Of a stretch of DNA of 14,582 nt, positions 1 through 13,999 are shown in pieces. The first letter of the stretch is position 1, and each line of letters begins with the position of its first letter. The notes under the pieces were generated by a model that ran no database searches, was not told where the DNA came from, and saw nothing but the letters and a program-made list of their open reading frames with translations. The position numbers and the translations under genes were made by a program. This DNA is from a virus (taxonomy: Duplodnaviria; Heunggongvirae; Uroviricota; Caudoviricetes): the IMG/VR virus record IMGVR_UViG_2574180220_000005. The stretch is one strand, 5' to 3'.

Positions 1-1362
1 ATGTTTAAACCGGAACTCCTTTCCCCGGCGGGAACGCTGAAAAATATGCGTTACGCTTTCGCTTATGGCGCAGATGCTGTTTATGCGGGCCAGCCGCGTT
101 ATTCCCTGCGTGTGCGCAACAACGAATTCAACCACGAAAATCTTCAGCTCGGCATCAATGAAGCCCACGCGCTGGGGAAAAAGTTTTATGTCGTGGTCAA
201 CATTGCACCGCACAACGCCAAGCTGAAAACCTTTATCCGTGACCTGAAACCGGTGGTGGAAATGGGGCCGGATGCGCTGATTATGTCCGATCCAGGGCTG
301 ATTATGCTGGTGCGTGAGCACTTCCCTGAAATGCCGATCCACCTTTCGGTGCAGGCTAACGCCGTGAACTGGGCGACGGTGAAATTCTGGCAGCAAATGG
401 GCCTGACCCGCGTGATCCTCTCTCGCGAGCTGTCGCTGGAAGAGATTGAAGAGATCCGCAATCAGGTGCCGGATATGGAGATCGAGATCTTCGTTCACGG
501 CGCGCTGTGCATGGCCTACTCCGGTCGCTGCCTGCTCTCTGGCTATATCAACAAGCGCGACCCGAACCAGGGCACCTGCACCAACGCCTGCCGCTGGGAG
601 TACAACGTCCAGGAAGGGAAAGAAGATGATGTTGGCAACATCGTACACAAGTACGAGCCGATTCCGGTGCAAAATGTTGAGCCGACGCTGGGTATCGGCG
701 CACCAACCGACAAAGTGTTTATGATCGAAGAGGCCCAGCGTCCGGGCGAGTATATGACCGCGTTTGAAGATGAGCACGGCACTTACATCATGAACTCGAA
801 AGATCTGCGCGCCATCGCCCATGTAGAACGCCTGACCAAAATGGGCGTGCATTCGCTGAAAATCGAAGGTCGTACCAAATCTTTCTACTATTGTGCACGC
901 ACCGCACAGGTTTACCGCAAAGCTATCGATGACGCCGCTGCGGGAAAACCGTTCGATACCAGCCTGCTGGAAACTCTGGAAGGTCTGGCGCATCGTGGCT
1001 ATACCGAAGGTTTCCTGCGTCGTCATACTCACGACGATTATCAGAACTACGAATACGGTTATTCAGTTTCTGACCGCCAGCAGTTTGTTGGTGAGTTTAC
1101 CGGTGAGCGCAAGGGGGACCTCGCGGCGGTAGCGGTGAAAAATAAATTCTCCGTTGGCGACAGCCTTGAGCTGATGACGCCGCAAGGCAACATTAATTTT
1201 ACCCTTGAGCACATGGAAAACGCCAAAGGCGAAGCTATGCCGATAGCACCAGGCGATGGTTATACTGTGTGGCTCCCGGTCCCGCAGGATCTTGAGCTCA
1301 ATTACGCGCTGCTGATGCGTAATTTCTCCGGGGAAACCACGCGTAATCCCCACGGTAAGTGA
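1..1362 (+). CDS. yegQ: Peptidase U32-family protein YegQ (also called TrhP), full-length 453 aa
   Basis: ORF 1..1362 with ATG at 1-3 and TGA at 1360-1362; translation (MFKPELLSPAGTLKNMRYAFAYGADAVYAGQPRYSLR...) recognised from memory as E. coli YegQ; no search run. Confidence 0.88.
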   Translation: MFKPELLSPAGTLKNMRYAFAYGADAVYAGQPRYSLRVRNNEFNHENLQLGINEAHALGKKFYVVVNIAPHNAKLKTFIRDLKPVVEMGPDALIMSDPGLIMLVREHFPEMPIHLSVQANAVNWATVKFWQQMGLTRVILSRELSLEEIEEIRNQVPDMEIEIFVHGALCMAYSGRCLLSGYINKRDPNQGTCTNACRWEYNVQEGKEDDVGNIVHKYEPIPVQNVEPTLGIGAPTDKVFMIEEAQRPGEYMTAFEDEHGTYIMNSKDLRAIAHVERLTKMGVHSLKIEGRTKSFYYCARTAQVYRKAIDDAAAGKPFDTSLLETLEGLAHRGYTEGFLRRHTHDDYQNYEYGYSVSDRQQFVGEFTGERKGDLAAVAVKNKFSVGDSLELMTPQGNINFTLEHMENAKGEAMPIAPGDGYTVWLPVPQDLELNYALLMRNFSGETTRNPHGK

Positions 1363-1635: not shown

Positions 1636-1836
1636 TTACATCCACATAATTTGCTGCCCTGACGGCAACGGGTGCGGCCTTACGGCGTGGACTTCTCCCG
1701 GCTTCACGATGTATCGCTGTACCGACTCATAAGTGATGAACGTGGCGCTGCAATTCACGTTCTGACACTGGTGATAACGCTCTTTTGTCGTGTCAGTGAT
1801 ATAGCGACTTGTACGCGCATGTGCGGCATGCTGGCA
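1636..1836 (-). pseudogene. ogr: P2 late-gene activator Ogr, 5'-truncated: start codon and first zinc-finger cysteine lost at a deletion junction
   Basis: Translation ...CQHAAHARTSRYITDTTKERYHQCQNVNCSATFITYESVQRYIVKPGEVHAVRPHPLPSGQQIMWM matches P2 Ogr from its residue 7 onward (from memory). The upstream residues (VTVSASGV) differ and lack the first Cys of the C-X2-C...C-X4-C finger. The only upstream in-frame start is a GTG at 1858-1860. Confidence 0.8.
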
Positions 1837-2662
1837 TACCCCAGAAGCGGAAACCGTCACGGCGAATCAGTGTTGTGACGCCTGACTCGTTAAGCAGGTC
1901 AGCATCGGTGCCGGACTCCTGCAAATCCCAGAATACAGATGCGCTGATGCCGGTAACACCGTTCACCCCGACGTTGGACAGCGTTTTATGCCAGCCCTGC
2001 TCATGGTCTATTTTGGCACGCAGACCCAGCGCACGTGCGGTGGCATACGCGGTGGCGGTGGTACTGGTGACCGTATCCCATGCGAGGAAATCCGGCCAGA
2101 TGACCATCAGCTCACGCTGGCTGAAATTCTGGCGGTAGGCTTTCACCTCAGAAATGGTTTTACAGCCCCATGCGCTGATATACCCGAAAGCGCGCAGCTT
2201 CTGACAGACTGATGCCAGTGCAACAGCCACCTCTTTGGTATCCAGCCCCGGCACACCAAGAATACGCGGTTTAACACCGGTTACCGACTCCGCCGCCAGC
2301 AGGGCTTTCAGTCCGGTGTACTGACCGTTTTCGTCGGTGGTTCCGATGATATTGGAAACAGTCTGCGCGAGTTTCGTTTCTTCGTCTTCGCCGGTGCCGT
2401 CTTCCACGCGCACGACAACGGTGACCGGTTTTGACTGGTCGGCGATGGCCTGCAACGATGCCGCCAGCGTGCCTTTTTTACCGGCCTTTGCAATTGCGCT
2501 CTGCACATTGGTAATCAGCACCGGTTTATTGAGGGGGAAGATTTCCGCATCCGCATCGCTGGCCGTGCAGACCATGCCGACAATGGCAGTGGATACGGTG
2601 GAAATGACGCGGGTGCCGTCGTTAATCTCCAGCACCTGCACGCCGTGATGATAGTCACTCAT
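1837..2662 (-). pseudogene. FI: P2 tail sheath gene FI, N-terminal ~275 codons only, fused out of frame to the ogr remnant (the fusion ORF runs 1793..2662)
   Basis: ORF starts at ATG 2660-2662 with a GGAG Shine-Dalgarno; translation MSDYHHGVQVLEINDGTRVISTVSTAIVGMVCTASDADAE... matches P2 gpFI (from memory) up to ...RRDGFRFWG, then reads ogr DNA in another frame (MPACRTCAYKSLYH*). P2 FI is ~396 aa, so ~120 C-terminal codons are missing. Confidence 0.85.
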
Positions 2663-5341: not shown

Positions 5342-5344
5342 AAA

Positions 5345-5590
5345 TTATACCTGCGCCACGTTATACCAAGTCCCGTTAATGTATTTCTGCACCGGTCTGT
5401 AATATACGCCACCAATGTTATCGGCAGAGTTTGAGCCGGTATCCTGAACAATAATGCCGGAATATACACACCCGGACGGTGCCTGATGTGTCCATGTCAT
5501 ACCATTGTTCGCAGGTTTGTATGTGGCAGCACCACCAAGCCGGATATCCCGGACATAGCGTGAATCAAAGTTGCCATAGTTAGATGGTGA
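5345..5590 (-). pseudogene. H: Tail fiber gene H, C-terminal ~80 codons only
   Basis: Minus-strand frame ending at TAA (plus-strand 5345-5347) encodes ...NYGNFDSRYVRDIRLGGAATYKPANNGMTWTHQAPSGCVYSGIIVQDTGSNSADNIGGVYYRPVQKYINGTWYNVAQV, a P2-like tail fiber C-terminus. There is no start codon, and it abuts the J fragment in a different frame. Confidence 0.55.
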
Positions 5591-5726
5591 TACGGGCGAC
5601 CGCCTCCTGCTGGTCTTCCGGGTAAAGGGAAATCAGTGTCGCCTTGCGTTCGGCAAGAATGGTTTCAAAGTCCAGCTCCTCGACCACATCCGGTGCGGGT
5701 AGCTGGTTCAGGTCGATAATCGGCAT
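5580..5726 (-). pseudogene. J: Baseplate gene J, N-terminal ~45 codons only, ending in a premature stop at the deletion junction
   Basis: ATG at 5724-5726 directly after the W stop; translation MPIIDLNQLPAPDVVEELDFETILAERKATLISLYPEDQQEAVAR matches the P2 gpJ N-terminus (from memory), then ITI and a stop. Confidence 0.7.
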
Positions 5727-5730
5727 GGTT

Positions 5731-6078
5731 TCAACTCACAGGGATGGTTAACGAAAGTGGCTGGCCGGTGTCGTTGTGCTGGCCGGTCAAAGTGACAGTC
5801 ATTCGCCCGTCAAAACTGCGCTCAGTGGTGACGGATGACAGGGTGATGCGGGGTTCCCATTTCAGCACCGCCATGTAACAGGCGACCTTAATCTGCAACT
5901 CAAGCGCCGGGGTCTGCGGCTGGTCAATCATTGACGCCAGCAACGAGCCGTAATCACGACGCATCACCCGTGAGCCGATCGGTGTGCGCAGGATATCGCC
6001 GATACTCTGGCTGATATGCTCAAGGTCAGTGACAGTCAGGCCATCACTGCGATTCATTCCGAGATAACGCGCTGTCAT
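5731..6078 (-). CDS. W: P2 baseplate wedge protein gpW (gp25-like), 115 aa, intact
   Basis: Translation MTARYLGMNRSDGLTVTDLEHISQSIGDILRTPIGSRVMRRDYGSLLASMIDQPQTPALELQIKVACYMAVLKWEPR... matches P2 gpW (from memory). Its start overlaps the stop of the upstream V fragment (ATGA). Confidence 0.85.
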   Translation of the reverse strand: MTARYLGMNRSDGLTVTDLEHISQSIGDILRTPIGSRVMRRDYGSLLASMIDQPQTPALELQIKVACYMAVLKWEPRITLSSVTTERSFDGRMTVTLTGQHNDTGQPLSLTIPVS

Positions 6079-6300
6079 TTTGTCCCCTGTGTCCAGTTGT
6101 CACCTGACTTAACACCACCGTGACCGTGGTCATCCACCTGAACGCCGTTAGAAGTGAATTTCCCGTCGGTATCCGCCGTGGCTGTCTGGAATATGACGTC
6201 AGCGCCACCGACATCACCAGCTCGTTTATGGCTATCCGCAAGACCATGACCAGCAGTGGACGCAGCGCCACCTATGAGGCCAGCCGCAGCGAGGAAGCCA
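6075..6300 (-). pseudogene. V: Baseplate spike gene V, C-terminal fragment (upstream boundary uncertain)
   Basis: The minus-strand frame ends ...GKFTSNGVQVDDHGHGGVKSGDNWTQGTK with a stop overlapping the W start; the His/Gly-rich C-terminus resembles the P2 gpV apex. The expected ~210-aa ORF is absent. Confidence 0.5.
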
Positions 6301-6404
6301 GCCACGCCGACCTCGCCTGGGCGACCATGCACGCCCTGTTAAATGAGCCACTCACCGCCGGTATCAGCACCCCGCTGACATCCACCATTCTGGAGTTTTA
6401 CTGA
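6300..6404 (+). pseudogene. P: Probable 3' remnant of the large terminase gene P (5' boundary uncertain)
   Basis: The plus-strand frame ends ...LAWATMHALLNEPLTAGISTPLTSTILEFY with a stop overlapping the Q start (TGATG), the arrangement expected for the P-Q operon. I cannot confirm the protein match from memory. Confidence 0.35.
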
Positions 6405-7438
6405 TGAGCAAGAAAAAAGGGAAAACACCGCAACCTGCGGCAAAAAAAATGACCGCCAGCGCCCTGAAAATGGAGGCATTCACCTTTGGTGAGCCGGTGC
6501 CGGTACTCGACCGCCGTGACATTCTAGATTACGTCGAGTGCATCAGTAACGGCAGATGGTATGAGCCGCCGGTCAGCTTTACCGGTCTGGCAAAAAGCCT
6601 GCGTGCTGCCGTACATCACAGCTCACCGATTTACGTCAAACGTAATATTCTGGCCTCGACATTTATCCCGCATCCGTGGCTTTCCCAGCAGGATTTCAGC
6701 CGCTTTGTGCTGGATTTTCTGGTGTTCGGTAATGCGTTTCTGGAAAAGCGTTACAGCACTACCGGTAAGGTCATCAGACTGGAAACCTCACCGGCAAAAT
6801 ATACCCGCCGTGGCGTGGAGGAGGATGTTTACTGGTGGGTGCCGTCCTTCAACGAGCCGACAGCCTTCGCGCCCGGTTCCGTGTTTCACCTGCTGGAGCC
6901 CGATATTAATCAGGAGCTGTACGGCCTGCCGGAATATCTCAGCGCCCTTAACTCTGCCTGGCTGAATGAATCGGCCACGCTGTTCCGCCGCAAGTATTAC
7001 GAAAACGGCGCACATGCCGGATACATCATGTACGTCACCGATGCCGTGCAGGATCGCAACGATATCGAAATGCTTCGCGAAAACATGGTGAAGTCGAAAG
7101 GCCGCAACAACTTTAAAAATCTGTTTCTCTATGCCCCGCAGGGGAAAGCCGACGGCATTAAAATTATCCCGCTCAGTGAAGTGGCAACGAAGGACGATTT
7201 TTTTAATATCAAAAAAGTCAGCGCCGCTGACCTGCTGGACGCACACCGCATCCCCTTTCAGTTGATGGGCGGCAAGCCGGAGAACGTCGGGTCACTGGGA
7301 GATATTGAGAAAGTGGCAAAGGTCTTTGTCCGCAATGAGCTTATCCCGTTACAGGACAGGATCCGCGAGATAAACGGCTGGCTCGGTCAGGAGGTCATCC
7401 GCTTTAAAAACTACTCACTGGACACTGACAACGGCTGA
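6404..7438 (+). CDS. Q: P2 portal protein gpQ, 344 aa, intact
   Basis: Translation MSKKKGKTPQPAAKKMTASALKMEAFTFGEPVPVLDRRDILDYVECISNGRWYEPP... matches P2 gpQ in sequence and length (from memory). Confidence 0.9.
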   Translation: MSKKKGKTPQPAAKKMTASALKMEAFTFGEPVPVLDRRDILDYVECISNGRWYEPPVSFTGLAKSLRAAVHHSSPIYVKRNILASTFIPHPWLSQQDFSRFVLDFLVFGNAFLEKRYSTTGKVIRLETSPAKYTRRGVEEDVYWWVPSFNEPTAFAPGSVFHLLEPDINQELYGLPEYLSALNSAWLNESATLFRRKYYENGAHAGYIMYVTDAVQDRNDIEMLRENMVKSKGRNNFKNLFLYAPQGKADGIKIIPLSEVATKDDFFNIKKVSAADLLDAHRIPFQLMGGKPENVGSLGDIEKVAKVFVRNELIPLQDRIREINGWLGQEVIRFKNYSLDTDNG

Positions 7439-7607: not shown

Positions 7608-7626
7608 GTGCTTTCCCCGCCTCGCC
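7608..7626. other. P2 cos cohesive-end sequence (19 nt), within the cos region between Q and cargo gene 2
   Basis: GTGCTTTCCCCGCCTCGCC is the exact reverse complement of the P2 19-nt cohesive end GGCGAGGCGGGGAAAGCAC as I recall it; located where cos is expected, next to Q. Confidence 0.7.
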
Positions 7627-7941
7627 CGCCCGCTTCATGGGGCGGTTTTAATGCAGTTGCATGATGAAACTGAAATCACATCAGCACTGACCGAAACTGA
7701 CAAAAAGAATAGTATCTGACACATGCAAAAACACGCACTTAATATACGCCTATCTATAGCTCCTACAGGATTGTCAAAAAACGACCAACTCGTCATAGCG
7801 TAAACACATTTGGCTCAACGAACACTTACGTTATATGCCTCTTGAACATATCAAAGTCTTAAGGTAGATCTTTACCACTAAGTGGCTATATTAAGCTGCT
7901 TTTTTACATACAATAAAAGCTTTATCGTATGAGGCATAAAA

Positions 7942-10158
7942 ATGGAACTTAGATTAAAAAATGTTACCAGTTATAAGAAAGACGCCTTCACAATACTGAA
8001 TCTTGAAAAAAGAGTAAACATACTATACGGCCAAAATGGTTGTGGCAAATCTACCATTTCAAATTATTTCTACGACTCTACACACACAGATTATAACGAG
8101 TGTGAATGTACCCTTCTTGACAATTACAAACCTCTTGTTTACAACACTAAATTTATTGAAGATAATTTCTACAATGCACAGGAACAAAAAGGTGTTTTTA
8201 CATTAAGTAAAGAAAATGCAGATATTGAAAAACAATTAATTGAAAAAGAAGCAATTAAACAGCAACTCACAGAGCAATATAGACAAAAAAAAGGAGTGTT
8301 ATTGAAATTAGAAGCAGAAATGGAAAAAAAAGAAAATGAATACATCGAATCGATCTGGAAAAAAACAGAACCAATCAGAAACTCTGTACTAAAAACCTTA
8401 ATGAAAGGTAAAGTTGGCTATAAAAGACCTTTTTTTGAGATGATAAAATCATCCTCACCAATCACCTTTATTAATTTAAATGATATAGCAAAAGAATACT
8501 CTATACTATTAGAAAATAGAAACAATGAAACCGCATTAATAACTCCTTTACATCCATATATCCCATCAATTGATGATGTAAATACATTAGCAACACCTAT
8601 AATAGATACAAGCAATAGCTATTTATCAGAAACCATTAATAAACTTCATAATCTTGACTGGGTAAAAAAAGGTAAAGAACATTATTTAGACGGTTCTACA
8701 TGTCCGTTTTGTCAGGAAAAAACTATTAGTCACGAATTTTTAAATGCCCTTAAATCAATATTTGACGAAAGTTATTCAAAGAAAGTAAAACAGCTCTCAG
8801 ATATAAAGTCAGTTTATGAGAAAAATACTATATATCATTTTAACGAAATACAAAACAATATATCATCATGTGCACTAATCAATGAGAAAGATAAAGAGAA
8901 CATTATTTCCAATATTAAAATATTGCAAAACATTGCAGAAAAAAATTTAATAAACATTATTGATAAGATCAACAATCCATCAACATGCGTTACATTAGAA
9001 ATTGATAAAGAACTAGAAAATCATGTTCAGGAAAGCATAGGCGCTGTTAACAAGAAAATAAGAGACATAAATGATAAGGTTAAAAAACTCAAAGAGTATG
9101 AGAATAAAATCGGAAAACAAGTTTGGGGGGCTCTCCATGCTTTTTGCAGCGATGATTTAGAGAATTTATCCAAACACAAAGAAAAATTCTTTGATATCAA
9201 AAAGAAAGTTCATGATGAATTAAATAATATTGAGCAACAAGGAAAAGAAAATAATCTCACAATAAAAGCATTGCGAGATAAAATATCTAACATTGATTCT
9301 ACGATAGACTCAATAAACACCCATTTAAAAAATCTAGGGATCTCTGGTTTTTGTATTGAAAAACATGCAGAAAGAAAAGATATGTACATTATATCTCGAC
9401 CAGGGCATACAAAAAACCAAAATGTTTATAGATCTCTTAGCGAAGGTGAAAAAACACTAATAACGTTTCTTTATTTTTTAGAGTGCTGTAAAGGTAAAAC
9501 CGATAAAAATGATACCGATAGCAGGGATATTTTTATTGTTATTGACGATCCAATATCTAGTCTATCGCAAAACTATGTCTACGACATCGCATCAATTATT
9601 CATCACCACATTATAAAAAATGAATTAACAAAGAAGGTATTAATCCTTACTCACAATCTTTATTTCTTTCATGAACTTATTAAGCTATCTCCTAAAAGCA
9701 GAGAAGACAAACTATTTAAGAAAAACTATTATCTAGGTAGAGTAACGAAAAATGATTTTAGTATAATTACTGAAATACAAAAAAACAGCATACAGAATGA
9801 ATATCAATCTTTGTGGCAAATATTAAAAGATGCAAAAGATGGCAAAGCAAACAAAATCATAATACCGAATATTATGAGAAACATACTAGAATATTATTTT
9901 GCATTTGTTCATAGAACAGATGCTCTACAAGATGAATTAACAAAGTTGGCACGCGACGATAGCAACAGTGATTTCAAAGCATTCTACAGATACATTAACA
10001 GAGGTTCTCACTCTGATGCGGTAAATATTACTGATATGGGCGACATAGACCCAGATAAATACCTAAAACAATTGAGAACAATATTTTCAGCTACTGGTGA
10101 CGAAATGCATTATTTAAAAATGATGGACGAACTAGAAGAGGAGAACGTTACCGCTTAG
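7942..10158 (+). CDS. Cargo gene 2: 738-aa AAA_13-type ABC ATPase with a long coiled-coil insert, a CxxC zinc-hook-like motif and a C-terminal putative RNase domain (RloC/PrrC-like anticodon-nuclease candidate)
   Basis: Intact ORF with GAGG ~8 nt before the ATG. Walker A GQNGCGKST (aa 30-38, nt 8029-8055); ~450-aa helical, Lys/Glu-rich insert; CPFC at aa 254-257 (nt 8701-8712); ABC signature LSEGEK (aa 498-503); Walker B IFIVIDD (aa 530-536, nt 9529-9549); H-loop LILTHN (aa ~571). C-terminal ~160 aa carry R-x3-E (RNILE, aa 646-650) and R-x6-H (RYINRGSH, aa 683-690). About 30% G+C by rough hand count of a 70-nt sample, against roughly 50% for the backbone. Sits between cos and A, the P2 tin/old hotspot position. 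Confidence 0.55.
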   Translation: MELRLKNVTSYKKDAFTILNLEKRVNILYGQNGCGKSTISNYFYDSTHTDYNECECTLLDNYKPLVYNTKFIEDNFYNAQEQKGVFTLSKENADIEKQLIEKEAIKQQLTEQYRQKKGVLLKLEAEMEKKENEYIESIWKKTEPIRNSVLKTLMKGKVGYKRPFFEMIKSSSPITFINLNDIAKEYSILLENRNNETALITPLHPYIPSIDDVNTLATPIIDTSNSYLSETINKLHNLDWVKKGKEHYLDGSTCPFCQEKTISHEFLNALKSIFDESYSKKVKQLSDIKSVYEKNTIYHFNEIQNNISSCALINEKDKENIISNIKILQNIAEKNLINIIDKINNPSTCVTLEIDKELENHVQESIGAVNKKIRDINDKVKKLKEYENKIGKQVWGALHAFCSDDLENLSKHKEKFFDIKKKVHDELNNIEQQGKENNLTIKALRDKISNIDSTIDSINTHLKNLGISGFCIEKHAERKDMYIISRPGHTKNQNVYRSLSEGEKTLITFLYFLECCKGKTDKNDTDSRDIFIVIDDPISSLSQNYVYDIASIIHHHIIKNELTKKVLILTHNLYFFHELIKLSPKSREDKLFKKNYYLGRVTKNDFSIITEIQKNSIQNEYQSLWQILKDAKDGKANKIIIPNIMRNILEYYFAFVHRTDALQDELTKLARDDSNSDFKAFYRYINRGSHSDAVNITDMGDIDPDKYLKQLRTIFSATGDEMHYLKMMDELEEENVTA

Positions 10159-10186
10159 GCCGCATATTATCGTTTTGGGTAAGAAC

Positions 10187-10206
10187 GACGGTGCTTACGC
10201 ACCGTC
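10187..10206. terminator. Hairpin between the convergent cargo gene 2 and A (GACGGTGC-ttac-GCACCGTC); possible terminator or structured element, no U-tract
   Basis: Perfect 8-bp stem with a 4-nt loop, read by eye; no flanking T-run on either strand. Confidence 0.3.
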
Positions 10207-10381
10207 TCCCAACGCCCAAAGCGGTAGCGGTTGTACTGGCGTACATTCACTAGCTTTAACATGAGGCAATCTCCATGCCAGCACTATTGTTGCCAATAGC
10301 AGCCTTTATACCCTTTGTACAAAGCTAATACCAAGAGTAATGCAAAGTAGATGTCCCAAGCGGTAACGGGGCTATTCTATG

Positions 10382-12673
10382 TCAAACACAGAAAAAATCA
10401 AAGCGCCCTATGAATCCCCCCCAACCATCAGCGACCGGATACGTGAATTTTTTCCCGTCATAATTTACGGTCGCTCCACGCGCCAGCGCCTCAAGCTCCC
10501 ATCGCTGCGGCATGATACCGTTCTGAGCAAGGTCAACGCGGATACGGGTGATTTGCAATCGTTCAGACCTGGTCAGTCTGGCAGATGGTGCAATTTCATG
10601 CGGTTTTAACGGGCTTCCGTTTCTTTGCTGACGGTTTGGCGTTCTCAGGTCGTATTTTAATGCGCCCCTGAGCGCCCTCACGACCTCCGGTTCATTCCAT
10701 TCAATAACACCGTCATCAACCAGATTAAGCACTGCTGCGGCGTGCTCAGAAGGTGTGGGAGCCGGTAACGAAGTATCACCACCGGTGAGCTTTCCACAGT
10801 TATTGACAGGACTCCGAGGCGCGGCGATGCCGCTTTTTAAAGTCAGAGGCTCAACGACCGGAACTTTCGGCACAATGCGCCAGTCCGTCGTTCTGGTGAT
10901 ATGAATATGACGCGCGCCGAGATGCGGCGCGTAAATGCCGACCACTCTCTCGACTTCTTCCTCGTACTCGTTAACTTCATCCGACGGACTACGGGCGACC
11001 CTGACAGTCTGACAATCGCGCGGGACATTTGCCCCACCCTGCGCGCTGATATACAACGCAAAATCACCACTGTCTGCGGCGGCGCGTGCAGCCTCGACGC
11101 GCTCGTCAAACTCATCAGCAATGCTGACGCCGCGAGGCAATTTGCGTAGTTCACGGTAAGCCCCCATTGTCGGCAGACCAACCGTTTTAAATTGTGGGAT
11201 GCGCCACGTTGACGCCCATGCGGTAACAGCCGCAGCAGTGTCTTTCAGCGGTCTGCCGGTATCGTTATCGAGCTGACCATCCAGTGCATAGCCATCGATG
11301 TTTTTTGAGATGTATTTCGCGATATACCCCGCAGCACCGCCCTGGTTAAGGTGTTTTGCCTGAAAACGGTTTCGCGCGGCTCCTCTTTCGTCGCCATCCT
11401 CTTTGAGCGCATAGCGACGCATGATTTCGATAATCTGGTTACGCTGGCGTGGATTACAAAAAAGCATCATATGCCAGTGCGGCGTTCCGTCGTGGTGTGG
11501 CTCGACGACACGCAAACCGTAGACCTGTAAATCATTATCTTTGAATGCCGTGCGCATCAGGCTCCAGATATGGCAGAGATAACGCTGCGCATCCTTTGGA
11601 TTAAATGCCTCATCGTTCCAGCCGTGATTTAGCTGGACGGTTTTACTTTCGCCTTTTCCGACCTGACGTGTCGGGTGATACTTTGAAGGCGCGGTAAGCG
11701 TGATAAACATCCCCACATCACCCTCTGCGGCGGCGTAACGCTCAATACCGGCAATGGTGTTCATCAGCTCCATCCGGCGAATTTCAGGATTAGAAATACT
11801 GCCCATCACCTTACTGATAAGGTCGATGCGCTCGCCGGTTTCCCTGTTTTCAAGGTCACACGATTTAAGAAATTCCAGATTTGCCTGGCGGCGTGCACGC
11901 ACATCACGAATGGCATGTTTACTGGCATAAGGAGAACGGTCTTTATTCACCTCCCCGACAGCAATCAGTAACGCCTCATGCCAGCGCATACGCTGGCCTT
12001 TGAGCTGATGAGTCCACCACTCATCGTTAAACAGACGGGCAATGGCAGAATATGCCTGCCTCGTGGTCATCTGTCCTTTACGGTATTTTTTCCAGTAAAG
12101 CGGGGAAATATTGAAAGCACGTGCAGCGCCAGCAACATGACCATAGAGGTGAGCCTGCGCCTCATCCGTAAACAGCGATTCTTTTTCGCCATGTGCATCC
12201 ACCCAGGCATCGCTGAGTTCCTCATACATCATGAAAAGCTGCGATGAGATACGGGCGGCAAACTTTTTCAGCTCCTTGTCATTCATTCCCGGCAGGCGCG
12301 CATAGTGGTCACGCTCTGCCAGAAACAGCAACGACGCGTCGGTGTTCATTTCATGGCGCTGATTCACACGCTCAATGCGCGGCCATAAACGACGCTGAAA
12401 AGTGGATGTGAGGAAATAAAACCCGTGCACCGGGCTTTTATTGCGCCGGATGTAGTCATAGCGTGAAGTAAACAGCGAGCGCAAAAAGTAAGGCAGGCGG
12501 TTAATCGTGGATAAAACACCTTGCATCTGACGCATCTCGTCACGTGTAAGGGGTCTTTCGCGCCCGACGGCCTCGCGTGGCGCGTTCCATGCATAAGCAC
12601 CGGTAAACATCTTACCGGTGCCTGCGGCAAATGCTGACGGAGGGACAAAACGCCCGGAGGCTTTAACGGCCAT
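10382..12673 (-). CDS. A: P2 replication initiation protein gpA (rolling-circle Rep of the HUH superfamily), intact; the ORF track's upstream Met at 12715 is an alternative start
   Basis: Translation from MAVKASGRFVPPSAFAAGTGKMFTGAYAWNAPREAV... matches P2 gpA (from memory). HUH motif PHWHMML and paired active-site tyrosines GYIAKYISK are present. The P2 origin is known to lie inside the A coding sequence (established knowledge; not located here). Confidence 0.88.
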   Translation of the reverse strand: MAVKASGRFVPPSAFAAGTGKMFTGAYAWNAPREAVGRERPLTRDEMRQMQGVLSTINRLPYFLRSLFTSRYDYIRRNKSPVHGFYFLTSTFQRRLWPRIERVNQRHEMNTDASLLFLAERDHYARLPGMNDKELKKFAARISSQLFMMYEELSDAWVDAHGEKESLFTDEAQAHLYGHVAGAARAFNISPLYWKKYRKGQMTTRQAYSAIARLFNDEWWTHQLKGQRMRWHEALLIAVGEVNKDRSPYASKHAIRDVRARRQANLEFLKSCDLENRETGERIDLISKVMGSISNPEIRRMELMNTIAGIERYAAAEGDVGMFITLTAPSKYHPTRQVGKGESKTVQLNHGWNDEAFNPKDAQRYLCHIWSLMRTAFKDNDLQVYGLRVVEPHHDGTPHWHMMLFCNPRQRNQIIEIMRRYALKEDGDERGAARNRFQAKHLNQGGAAGYIAKYISKNIDGYALDGQLDNDTGRPLKDTAAAVTAWASTWRIPQFKTVGLPTMGAYRELRKLPRGVSIADEFDERVEAARAAADSGDFALYISAQGGANVPRDCQTVRVARSPSDEVNEYEEEVERVVGIYAPHLGARHIHITRTTDWRIVPKVPVVEPLTLKSGIAAPRSPVNNCGKLTGGDTSLPAPTPSEHAAAVLNLVDDGVIEWNEPEVVRALRGALKYDLRTPNRQQRNGSPLKPHEIAPSARLTRSERLQITRIRVDLAQNGIMPQRWELEALARGATVNYDGKKFTYPVADGWGGFIGRFDFFCV

Positions 12674-12938
12674 ATGAGCCAAAAGCCTCTGAACAACGCT
12701 TGCTGAGTTGCTCAACCTGCACGTTTAAATCAGCAAAAGACTTTGCGCTTCCGGTCAGAATATCGTGATGCATCAGGCCTGAAACGAGCTGGCTTAATTT
12801 CGGGTAATAACCAACCACCGCCAGCCATTCCTGACCGGCGTTTTTACCGCTTTCCGCTCTCTTTTTCTCGTGGAGAATAAACTGAAAGCTGTCACTGGTA
12901 ACGACATAACGTTCGCCAATTTCAATACGAATACTCAT
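12663..12938 (-). CDS. Small early-operon protein immediately upstream of A (P2 orf83-like; name uncertain), 91 aa
   Basis: ORF with a GGAG RBS, ending 11 nt into A in another frame; its start overlaps the stop of the upstream remnant (ATGA). Synteny with the P2 orf80-83/A block; identity not verified. Confidence 0.55.
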   Translation of the reverse strand: MSIRIEIGERYVVTSDSFQFILHEKKRAESGKNAGQEWLAVVGYYPKLSQLVSGLMHHDILTGSAKSFADLNVQVEQLSKRCSEAFGSYGR

Positions 12939-13027
12939 GCCGTTCTCCGGTAATGTTTGTTTTTTGCTTCAAAGACTGACTGACAGGAAACACAACGCGT
13001 GGCTGACGGGTAAGCCGCACGACGGGC
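12935..13027 (-). pseudogene. 3' remnant (~30 codons) of the gene preceding the orf83-like gene (P2 orf82-like?), truncated at the int junction
   Basis: The minus-strand frame ends ...PSATRCVSCQSVFEAKNKHYRRTA with TGA overlapping the ATG of the next gene; further upstream the same strand is antisense to int. Confidence 0.3.
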
Positions 13028-13999
13028 ATCCGCCCTACTGGACGTAATGGAAAACGCATCCGTAGGAAGTTTGATAAGAAAAGCGAAGCTGTCGCTTTCG
13101 AGAAATACACGTTGTACAACCACCACAATAAAGAATGGCTATCAAAACCAACAGACAAGCGACGTCTGTCGGAGCTGACACAGATCTGGTGGGATTTAAA
13201 GGGTAAACACGAAGAGAATGGGAAATCTAATCTTGGAAAAATTGAAATCTTCACAAAAATAACGAATGACCCATGCGCATTTCAAATTACGAAATCGCTT
13301 ATCAGCCAGTACTGCGCCACCCGAAGAAGTCAGGGTATTAAACCTTCGAGTATCAATCGTGATTTAACATGTATTAGCGGCATGTTTACAGCCCTGATTG
13401 AAGCGGAGTTATTCTTTGGTGAGCACCCTATCAGAGGGACAAAAAGGCTTAAGGAGGAAAAACCAGAAACAGGCTATCTAACACAGGAAGAAATTGCCTT
13501 ACTGCTTGCAGCACTTGACGGCGACAATAAAAAGATTGCGATTCTTTGCCTGAGTACAGGAGCACGTTGGGGAGAAGCAGCTCGTTTGAAAGCAGAAAAT
13601 ATCATCCATAACCGCGTCACGTTTGTTAAAACGAAAACAAACAAACCACGCACCGTCCCGATCTCAGAGGCTGTTGCCAAAATGATCGCGGATAACAAAC
13701 GAGGTTTTTTATTCCCTGATGCTGATTACCCTCGCTTCAGACGAACAATGAAAGCAATAAAACCGGATTTGCCAATGGGGCAAGCCACACATGCACTAAG
13801 GCACAGCTTTGCCACTCATTTCATGATTAATGGAGGAAGTATTATCACGCTACAACGGATACTAGGTCACACGCGGATTGAGCAAACTATGGTTTACGCT
13901 CATTTTGCGCCAGAGTACCTTCAGGACGCCATTTCTCTTAATCCGCTAAGAGGTGGTACTGAGGCCGAGAGTGTCCACACAGTGTCCACAGTAGAGTAA
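13028..13999 (+). pseudogene. int: P2 integrase (tyrosine recombinase), missing ~14 N-terminal codons and its ATG; catalytic domain intact
   Basis: The frame reads IRPTGRNGKRIRRKFDKKSEAVAFEKYTLYNHHNKEWL... to ...TEAESVHTVSTVE, matching P2 Int from about residue 15 (from memory). An in-frame TGA at 13004-13006 leaves no ATG or GTG before the match; the first candidate start is the TTG at 13112 used by the ORF track. Catalytic-site motifs ARWGEAARLK, HALRHSFATH and GHTRIEQTMVYAHF are present. Confidence 0.8.

Follow-up and report, generated by a model that had tools for sequence, protein, structure and literature searches.

RloC was defined by Davidov and Kaufmann (2008; PMC2610378) as a distant homologue of PrrC with the same ABC motifs, a predicted coiled-coil insert with a CXXC zinc hook between Walker A and the ABC signature, and a C-proximal Arg-X3-Glu-X36-52-His motif in which Ser often stands just before the His; the proteins are 658-897 amino acids (aa) in size, and their linkage to restriction-modification loci is rare. 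The proteins of Geobacillus kaustophilus (GkaRloC) and Acinetobacter baylyi (AbaRloC) are latent nucleases that are activated by ATP hydrolysis with linear, not circular, DNA and that cut tRNA 3', then 5', of the wobble base; wobble-nucleotide excision and the DNA-dependent ATPase switch have been shown for these two proteins only. In GkaRloC, Ala substitution at any residue of the catalytic triad abolishes tRNA cleavage and toxicity (PMC2610378), and the hook mutation C291G results in a constitutive, uncoupled nuclease. RloC is activated in vivo by inducers of double-strand breaks, with tRNA-Glu and tRNA-Gln being depleted. The present study concerns a gene of this type, an open reading frame (ORF) at positions 7942..10158 of a 14,582-nucleotide (nt) stretch of viral DNA (Caudoviricetes; IMG/VR record IMGVR_UViG_2574180220_000005), the whole of which is called the window below. 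Its product is an RloC orthologue, a self-contained ABC-ATPase/putative anticodon nuclease, and the gene makes up a one-gene moron cassette at the cos-proximal hotspot within a P2-like prophage that has since decayed.

The initial annotation of this stretch, made from the sequence alone, had treated the gene as a fresh discovery, which it is not: it was catalogued in 2008, 2013 and 2022, and the gene, its family assignment and its P2-hotspot position are already known from work published in 2008, 2012, 2013 and 2022 and from PADLOC. The window protein is identical at 737 of 738 residues to a protein of E. coli APEC O1 encoded at the same Q/A position. The APEC O1 protein (YP_852004, 738 aa) is RloC orthologue no. 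51 in Table S1 of Davidov and Kaufmann (2008; PMC2610378), where its flanking genes are given as "phage replication initiation, capsid", and "E. coli APECO1 RloC" was aligned with Photorhabdus PrrC by Klaiman et al. (2012; Fig. 8). Anantharaman et al. (2013) placed PrrC, RloC and APECO1_4465 in one HEPN family and reported that ABC-HEPN proteins, for which APECO1_4465 from avian pathogenic E. coli is the type, are often met with in integrated prophages; APECO1_4465 is likely the same gene, its accession being unconfirmed. Finally, Rousset et al. (2022) listed WP_001583661, the accession of the window protein, as a one-gene P2 hotspot locus (Table S5A) and "AAA_13" as the fifth commonest P2-hotspot system, with 420 occurrences and the note "RloC-like" (Table S5B); the table of experimentally tested systems in the same paper contains no AAA_13 entry.

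Membership in the RloC family

The RloC/PrrC-like reading of the initial annotation was upheld by profile searches. The best match across all libraries was PADLOC PDC-S06 (PDLC04886; E=1.2e-254, aa 2-730), and the Pfam AAA_13 profile matched over the full length (aa 17-716, E=1e-111). Weaker matches were given by the PADLOC profiles for PrrC (aa 490-730, E=1e-12), with the whole protein only, and for LmuB (E=2e-10). No match to Toprim or DUF4435 was obtained for the RloC protein in the Pfam and PADLOC scans, no meaningful match in NCBIfam, and only families of unknown function in PHROGs; a sequence search of the Protein Data Bank (PDB) with the whole protein returned nothing at E<=1, so no solved relative is available by sequence.

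The features of the protein agree with the published definition of RloC. Walker A, the signature, Walker B with the D-loop, and T570-H571 are all present; C254-P-F-C257 lies in a helical insert, with putative zinc binding and dimerisation; and the C-terminal part reads R646-X3-E650-X39-S689-H690. The gene stands alone, with portal gene Q and replication gene A as its only neighbours and no restriction-modification genes, its 738 codons fall within the reported size range, and the near-identical APEC O1 protein is itself a listed orthologue. Residues K44/C291/D572/R692/E696/H737 of GkaRloC are colinear with K36/C254/D535/R646/E650/H690 of the window protein, and the distance from hook to Walker B is 281 residues in both, a comparison made from published residue numbers. 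A scan of genome contigs yielded 80 closer homologues of 720-790 aa, with no Geobacillus or A. baylyi protein among them, and a profile search seeded with the most distant matches gave mainly a streptococcal clade. Taken together, membership of the window protein in the RloC family is close to certain.

Other leads were considered and rejected. Membership in the OLD family was discarded for want of a Toprim match, and membership in PrrC because of the length of 738 aa, the 350-aa helical insert and the phage, not hsd, neighbours. HepS, the HEPN tRNase of Gifsy-1, is unrelated in architecture. PDC-S06 was dropped as a lead to something new because the papers citing it list it merely as a prediction.

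Conservation was scored in a set of 88 homologues drawn from databases (alignment A2) and, independently of it, in a second set of 66 extracted from genomes sampled at the species level. All motif residues named in the initial annotation (Walker A, CPFC, LSEGEK, IFIVIDD, H-loop, RNILE and RYINRGSH) are exact, and their positions are given below and in Table 1. D535, D536 and H571 are invariant in both sets, as are the hook cysteines C254 and C257 (88/88 and 66/66), which are the only conserved Cys/His columns within aa 90-450. Because they are the sole conserved candidates, a zinc site with four ligands would presumably have to draw on another chain, by analogy with the Rad50 hook, and the hook zinc would then be shared between two chains. 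The cysteines belong to a longer conserved block, N-x-D-W-V-x-x-G-x9-C-P-F-C-Q-x-T (aa 219-257, 8596..8712), in which D239, W240, G244, P255, F256 and Q258 are conserved at no less than 90%. The sequence constraint in the hook region therefore reaches well past the two cysteines, and the block could be the mark of a specific interface. Walker B ends in Asp-Asp (IVIDD-P; aa 535-536, 9544..9549) throughout the RloC family. In a typical ABC ATPase, Walker B ends in Asp-Glu with the catalytic glutamate. The Asp-Asp ending may bear on the ATPase activity of GkaRloC, which is reported to be weak and dependent on DNA.

In the C-terminal part, conservation agrees with the RNase centre proposed in the initial annotation at the Arg-X3-Glu pair and the histidine but not at the R-x6-H arginine. 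R646 shows no exception in either set. The counts are 86/88 and 65/66 for E650, with Asp in the exceptions, 86/88 and 65/66 for S689, and 87/88 and 64/66 for H690; in 77 sequences of the set of 88, Glu and His are 36-39 residues apart. Within RYINRGSH (aa 683-690, 9988..10011), N686, S689 and H690 are conserved, unlike R683 and R687: the latter two are found in 73/88 and 69/88 close homologues and in only 23/66 and 22/66 of the wider sample, where Ser and Asp predominate. The canonical arginine of the HEPN Rx4-6H motif is thus kept among close relatives only and is not family-wide, so that the suggested HEPN-type R-x6-H centre, which depends on R683, finds no support in that form. In both alignments, the putative catalytic arginine that is conserved is R646, not R683.

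The full-length AlphaFold2 model (mean predicted local distance difference test score, pLDDT, 84; predicted template modelling score, pTM, 0.52) comprises the two lobes of the ATPase, the N-terminal one at aa 1-90 and the C-terminal one at aa 452-611, and an all-helical C-terminal domain at aa 620-727. The helical insert with CPFC described in the initial annotation is present between the lobes, but it does not span the suggested ~450 aa: the insert proper covers about aa 93-446, and the rest belongs to the ATPase lobes. It is modelled as two stalk helices (93-141 and 403-446) and a distal helical region, the interior consisting of shorter helices, the CPFC loop (249-263) and long helices at 276-309, 315-344 and 356-401. 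Its composition, which had been called Lys/Glu-rich, is more exactly K/I/N/E-rich (K 13%, I 12%, N 9.5%, E 9.5%), which is partly an AT-codon effect because the gene is AT-rich. In a Foldseek search against the PDB, in a structure library that holds no RloC or PrrC structure, the best matches were Rad50, condensin/cohesin/SMC heads with coiled coils, Lamassu LmuB and retron/Septu PtuA. The model of the C-terminal domain had no match with E below 0.95 in the same kind of search, and no convincing nuclease fold was found for it in the fold searches.

The P2 hotspot, the cassette and its distribution

The position of the gene at the P2 tin/old hotspot between cos and A, as proposed in the initial annotation, was confirmed in two ways. 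A 19-nt cohesive-end sequence is matched exactly (0 matches expected by chance), with the rloC ORF 315 bp away from it. In blastn comparison with phage P2, homology stops at 7655, after 48 bp of the cos region, and restarts at 10412, from where gene A is 99.5% identical to P2; the 2.76-kb cassette between these breakpoints therefore replaces orf91-tin-old. In P2, the interval from cos to A carries orf91, tin and old, of which old and tin are read from a cos-adjacent promoter towards gene A, their transcripts beginning within the variable part close to cos, and rloC has the same orientation. The restart of homology falls within gene A, some 30 nt in from its 3' end (after 10382..10411). The right recombination boundary is thus within the last codons of A, and the C-terminal tail of the window gpA differs from that of P2 gpA.

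The strong AT-richness noted in the initial annotation, against a backbone of roughly 50% G+C, was borne out by the counts: the ORF has 29.6% G+C, its opening 70 nt have 28.6%, and the flanking phage genes are at about 53% (portal gene Q 52.8%, gene A 53.2%); the value falls to 0.27-0.32 across the cassette. The 738-codon frame is intact, from an ATG start on the plus strand to a stop codon within the coordinates given above. The other ORFs of the cassette are all <=53 aa, so a partner gene was rejected and the single-gene reading holds. Inside the cassette, the best promoter candidate is a weak sigma-70-like site, a type of site that is not enriched there over the shuffled expectation. No intrinsic terminator was found 3' of rloC in a scan of the plus strand. 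An 8-bp GC-rich hairpin, GACGGTGC-TTAC-GCACCGTC, lies at 10185..10206 between the convergent rloC and A genes; a T tract is absent on both strands, and the hairpin is not called a terminator.

Identical or near-identical genes were found in 42 complete genomes of E. coli, flanked in every case by the portal and replication endonuclease genes, and among 15 listed near-identical copies the identity is at least 99.4%. Some of these copies lie in intact P2-like prophages, and the annotation in those genomes is "AAA family ATPase" only. The exact protein is present on 793 contigs in public data, and one source calls it "wobble nucleotide-excising tRNase"; several of the full-length homologues with 25-65% identity, which occur in Proteobacteria, Bacteroidota, Bacillota, Helicobacter and others, bear the same name, and streptococcal prophage homologues are annotated as "translation-disabling ACNase". 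A 58%-identical allele fills this Q/A slot in a P2-like prophage of E. coli that is intact. The 65%-identical Serratia and 32%-identical Pseudomonas homologues stand alone in islands that are not P2, and the Pseudomonas gene has an integrase close by. The RloC family travels among P2 hotspots and mobile islands of other kinds. None of the deposited phage genomes carries this allele, the nearest being that of Enterobacter phage ENT4 (65%).

The window as a whole is a decayed P2-like prophage inserted beside trhP/yegQ (1..1362). The tail sheath gene is truncated (1793..2662), the baseplate V/J and terminase genes are pseudogene fragments (roughly 5342..6403), and no capsid, lysis or early (C/cox/B) genes are left. 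Around 12939..13999, homology to P2 stops at 13028, the early region between orf83 and int is absent, and the integrase is shortened to a 295-aa ORF. The two defence cassettes have stayed intact, as have the portal gene, cos and gene A. The second cassette, with ~0.37 G+C, is flanked by the truncated sheath gene on one side and the gene for tail-fibre assembly on the other, which is the P2 Z/fun hotspot, and encodes a fused PARIS protein, AriAB. With this protein alongside rloC, the remnant carries two different predicted tRNA-targeting abortive systems.

Table 1 Features of the window, with three homologous loci in the last rows (coordinates there follow the locus handle)
Feature	Position	Strand	Remarks
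Portal gene Q of P2 type, conserved flank on the left of the hotspot	6404..7438	+	Pfam Phage_portal; identical loci in E. coli carry the annotation phage portal protein
P2 cos, 19-nt cohesive end	7608..7626	-	exact match to GGCGAGGCGGGGAAAGCAC; aligns to P2 cosR 33575-33593
Variable low-G+C cassette, 2.76 kb	7656..10411	+	blastn vs P2; stands in for orf91-tin-old
Candidate sigma-70-like promoter, weak	7716..7745	+	consensus only; CTGACA-18-TAATAT, 9/12 matches
Shine-Dalgarno GAGG	7931..7934	+	7 nt upstream of the rloC ATG, read from sequence
rloC-type gene, 738 aa	7942..10158	+	AAA_13 and PDC-S06 profiles; 737/738 match to APEC O1 RloC orthologue
Walker A GQNGCGKST, aa 30-38 (K36)	8029..8055	+	G30, G35, K36 invariant in both sets
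Helical insert between ATPase lobes, aa 93-446	8218..9279	+	AlphaFold2, pLDDT mostly 80-95
CPFC zinc-hook motif, aa 254-257	8701..8712	+	loop between helices 238-248 and 264-273
ABC signature LSEGEK, aa 499-504	9436..9453	+	G502, E503 invariant in both sets
Walker B IFIVIDD, aa 530-536, then D-loop PISSLS (motif block 530-542)	9529..9549	+	D535, D536, P537 invariant
H-loop/linchpin T570-H571	9649..9654	+	invariant
All-helical C-terminal domain, about aa 612-738, putative anticodon nuclease	9775..10155	+	
RNILE, R646-E650, Arg-X3-Glu part of the putative catalytic triad	9877..9891	+	matches GkaRloC R692/E696 and PrrC R320/E324
S689-H690, triad His preceded by Ser	10006..10011	+	39 residues past E650; spacing within published X36-52
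P2 replication gene A, right conserved flank	10382..12715	-	convergent with rloC; Pfam Phage_GPA E=2e-124
Fused PARIS protein AriAB, 537 aa	2938..4551	-	PADLOC AriAB E=1.7e-186; Pfam DUF4435 + AAA_21
58%-identical E. coli allele	L089 5001..7208		
65%-identical Serratia homologue	L088 5001..7220		
32%-identical Pseudomonas homologue	L004 6001..8163		

Proposed mechanism and alternative readings

By analogy with the G. kaustophilus and A. baylyi proteins, the full RloC mechanism probably applies to the P2-borne protein. The gene would be transcribed from its own cos-side promoter, like P2 old/tin, at a level that is probably low. In the idle state, a hook-linked dimer in which the CPFC of one chain pairs with that of the second chain via a zinc ion, the Rad50-like head and the helical insert would hold the C-terminal nuclease silent. 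DNA ends or double-strand breaks, for example from a superinfecting phage, would stimulate ATP hydrolysis, which would turn on the R646/E650/H690 nuclease; this would cut the anticodon loops of a subset of tRNAs, 3' and then 5' of the wobble base, with excision of the base. Translation would halt and the infection would abort, the damage being hard to reverse by phage tRNA repair enzymes. The abortive-infection function of this orthologue is likewise proposed from its relatives.

Several points weigh against this reading. When aa 600-738 were scanned alone against PADLOC and Pfam, only AAA_13/PDC-S06 were obtained and no PrrC or HEPN family; the PrrC profile gave no match to this segment at E<=10, its match to the whole protein stemming from the C-terminal lobe of the ATPase, and the homology of the nuclease domain to PrrC thus rests on the short triad motif. 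The model suggests that the insert is a stalk of 45-50 residues with a distal helical cap, not the long two-helix coiled coil of Rad50, a reading drawn from predicted secondary structure; because the predicted stalk is short, the geometry of the DNA sensor may differ from that of Rad50. The literature yielded neither an experiment on this E. coli orthologue nor a plaque assay in which any RloC is directly shown to protect against phage, and the S. thermophilus RloC is listed as "not tested".

With no plaque assay found, the main rival is that the protein is a true RloC-type tRNase that serves not phage exclusion but a DNA-damage-responsive translation brake of the host or prophage (SOS, induction), or a selfish stabilisation of the element itself. 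This would also fit the retention of an intact rloC although the prophage has decayed. However, the slot hosts proven anti-phage genes (P2 old and tin, and the validated systems of Rousset et al. 2022), low G+C and alternative alleles are typical of defence cargo, and a damage-triggered tRNase and abortive infection can both hold, so this alternative is considered rather improbable.

A second alternative is that the gene is silent or dead cargo, with an intact frame that is not expressed, for example because it is silenced as AT-rich foreign DNA. Its prophage is without terminase, capsid, lysis and early genes, its G+C content is far under that of the flanking phage genes, the promoter prediction is no better than chance, and rloC genes in general were predicted to be lowly expressed (Davidov and Kaufmann 2008; PMC2610378). 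Against this stand the intact frame with every catalytic residue present, the good Shine-Dalgarno sequence, and the near-identical copies in complete E. coli genomes and on public contigs, intact P2-like prophages included, which make such a reading very unlikely. Similarly hard to credit is a DNA-end sensor of the Rad50/SbcC/LmuB kind, with a protein-interaction or DNA-acting module instead of an RNase as its C-terminal domain and with defence directed at DNA, even though the best structural matches of the protein are Rad50, SMC and LmuB heads, the LmuB profile matches weakly and the C-terminal domain found no convincing nuclease fold. The RloC mechanism set out above, with phage exclusion as its outcome, is retained as the preferred reading.

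Comparison with known systems

The systems nearest in location are P2 Old, which occupies the same genomic slot, and PARIS AriA/AriB, which is present in the same prophage as fused AriAB. Recent work on P2 Old describes an ABC-ATPase sensor that is activated by DNA substrates, with destruction of tRNA. Both Old and PARIS resemble RloC in joining an ABC-ATPase sensor to a tRNA-cutting effector that aborts infection; they differ from it in having a Toprim effector, no CxxC hook and homology only in the ATPase core. We tentatively suggest that the cos-proximal P2 slot may swap functionally equivalent modules of the type "ABC-ATPase DNA sensor plus tRNA-cutting effector", and that what is left of the prophage may have been domesticated by the host as a two-pronged arsenal against tRNA. 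If the slot does work in this way, RloC would do the job of Old, from DNA ends or replication intermediates to tRNA loss, with an unrelated nuclease and a hook-bearing sensor; RloC and fused PARIS would hit different tRNA sets, and tRNA-encoding phages would escape less easily.

The residual value of the locus lies in experiments on a tractable orthologue rather than in discovery. RloC is known mainly from biochemistry, and an E. coli allele in a tractable host/phage system, beside the well-studied Old, would be a convenient model. The questions suited to it are the trigger during infection, the tRNAs removed, and whether wobble-base excision defeats phage tRNA repair. Additionally, rloC and fused PARIS in a decayed prophage provide a small example of defence genes that outlive their phage.

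The window protein resembles Rad50, SbcC and LmuB in the predicted head fold and coiled-coil stalk and shares a CPxC-type hook with them, and RloC groups among LmuB/SbcC homologues in a published survey; those proteins, however, work with separate DNA nucleases (Mre11, SbcD, LmuA) and have no C-terminal tRNase domain. PADLOC PDC-S06, the best full-length profile match, is a bioinformatic label for AAA_13 single-gene loci and holds no functional information past RloC. PrrC of the E. coli prr locus has the ABC motifs and the Arg/Glu/His nuclease triad in common with the window protein, but it is ~400 aa long, lacks the coiled-coil/zinc-hook insert, and is always located within, and silenced by, a type Ic hsd locus, which is not the case for the window gene; the Walker A of PrrC ends in Arg and the protein has a PrrC box, and the window protein has neither. 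The closest counterpart is RloC itself (GkaRloC, A. baylyi ACIAD0152 and APEC O1 YP_852004), with the same ABC head, CxxC helical insert, Arg-X3-Glu-X39-Ser-His centre and stand-alone gene. In comparison with GkaRloC (804 aa) and AbaRloC (826 aa), the window protein is shorter, at 738 aa, its insert is predicted to be a short stalk with a distal helical region, and its carrier is a P2-type prophage hotspot, not a transposon or a chromosomal island.

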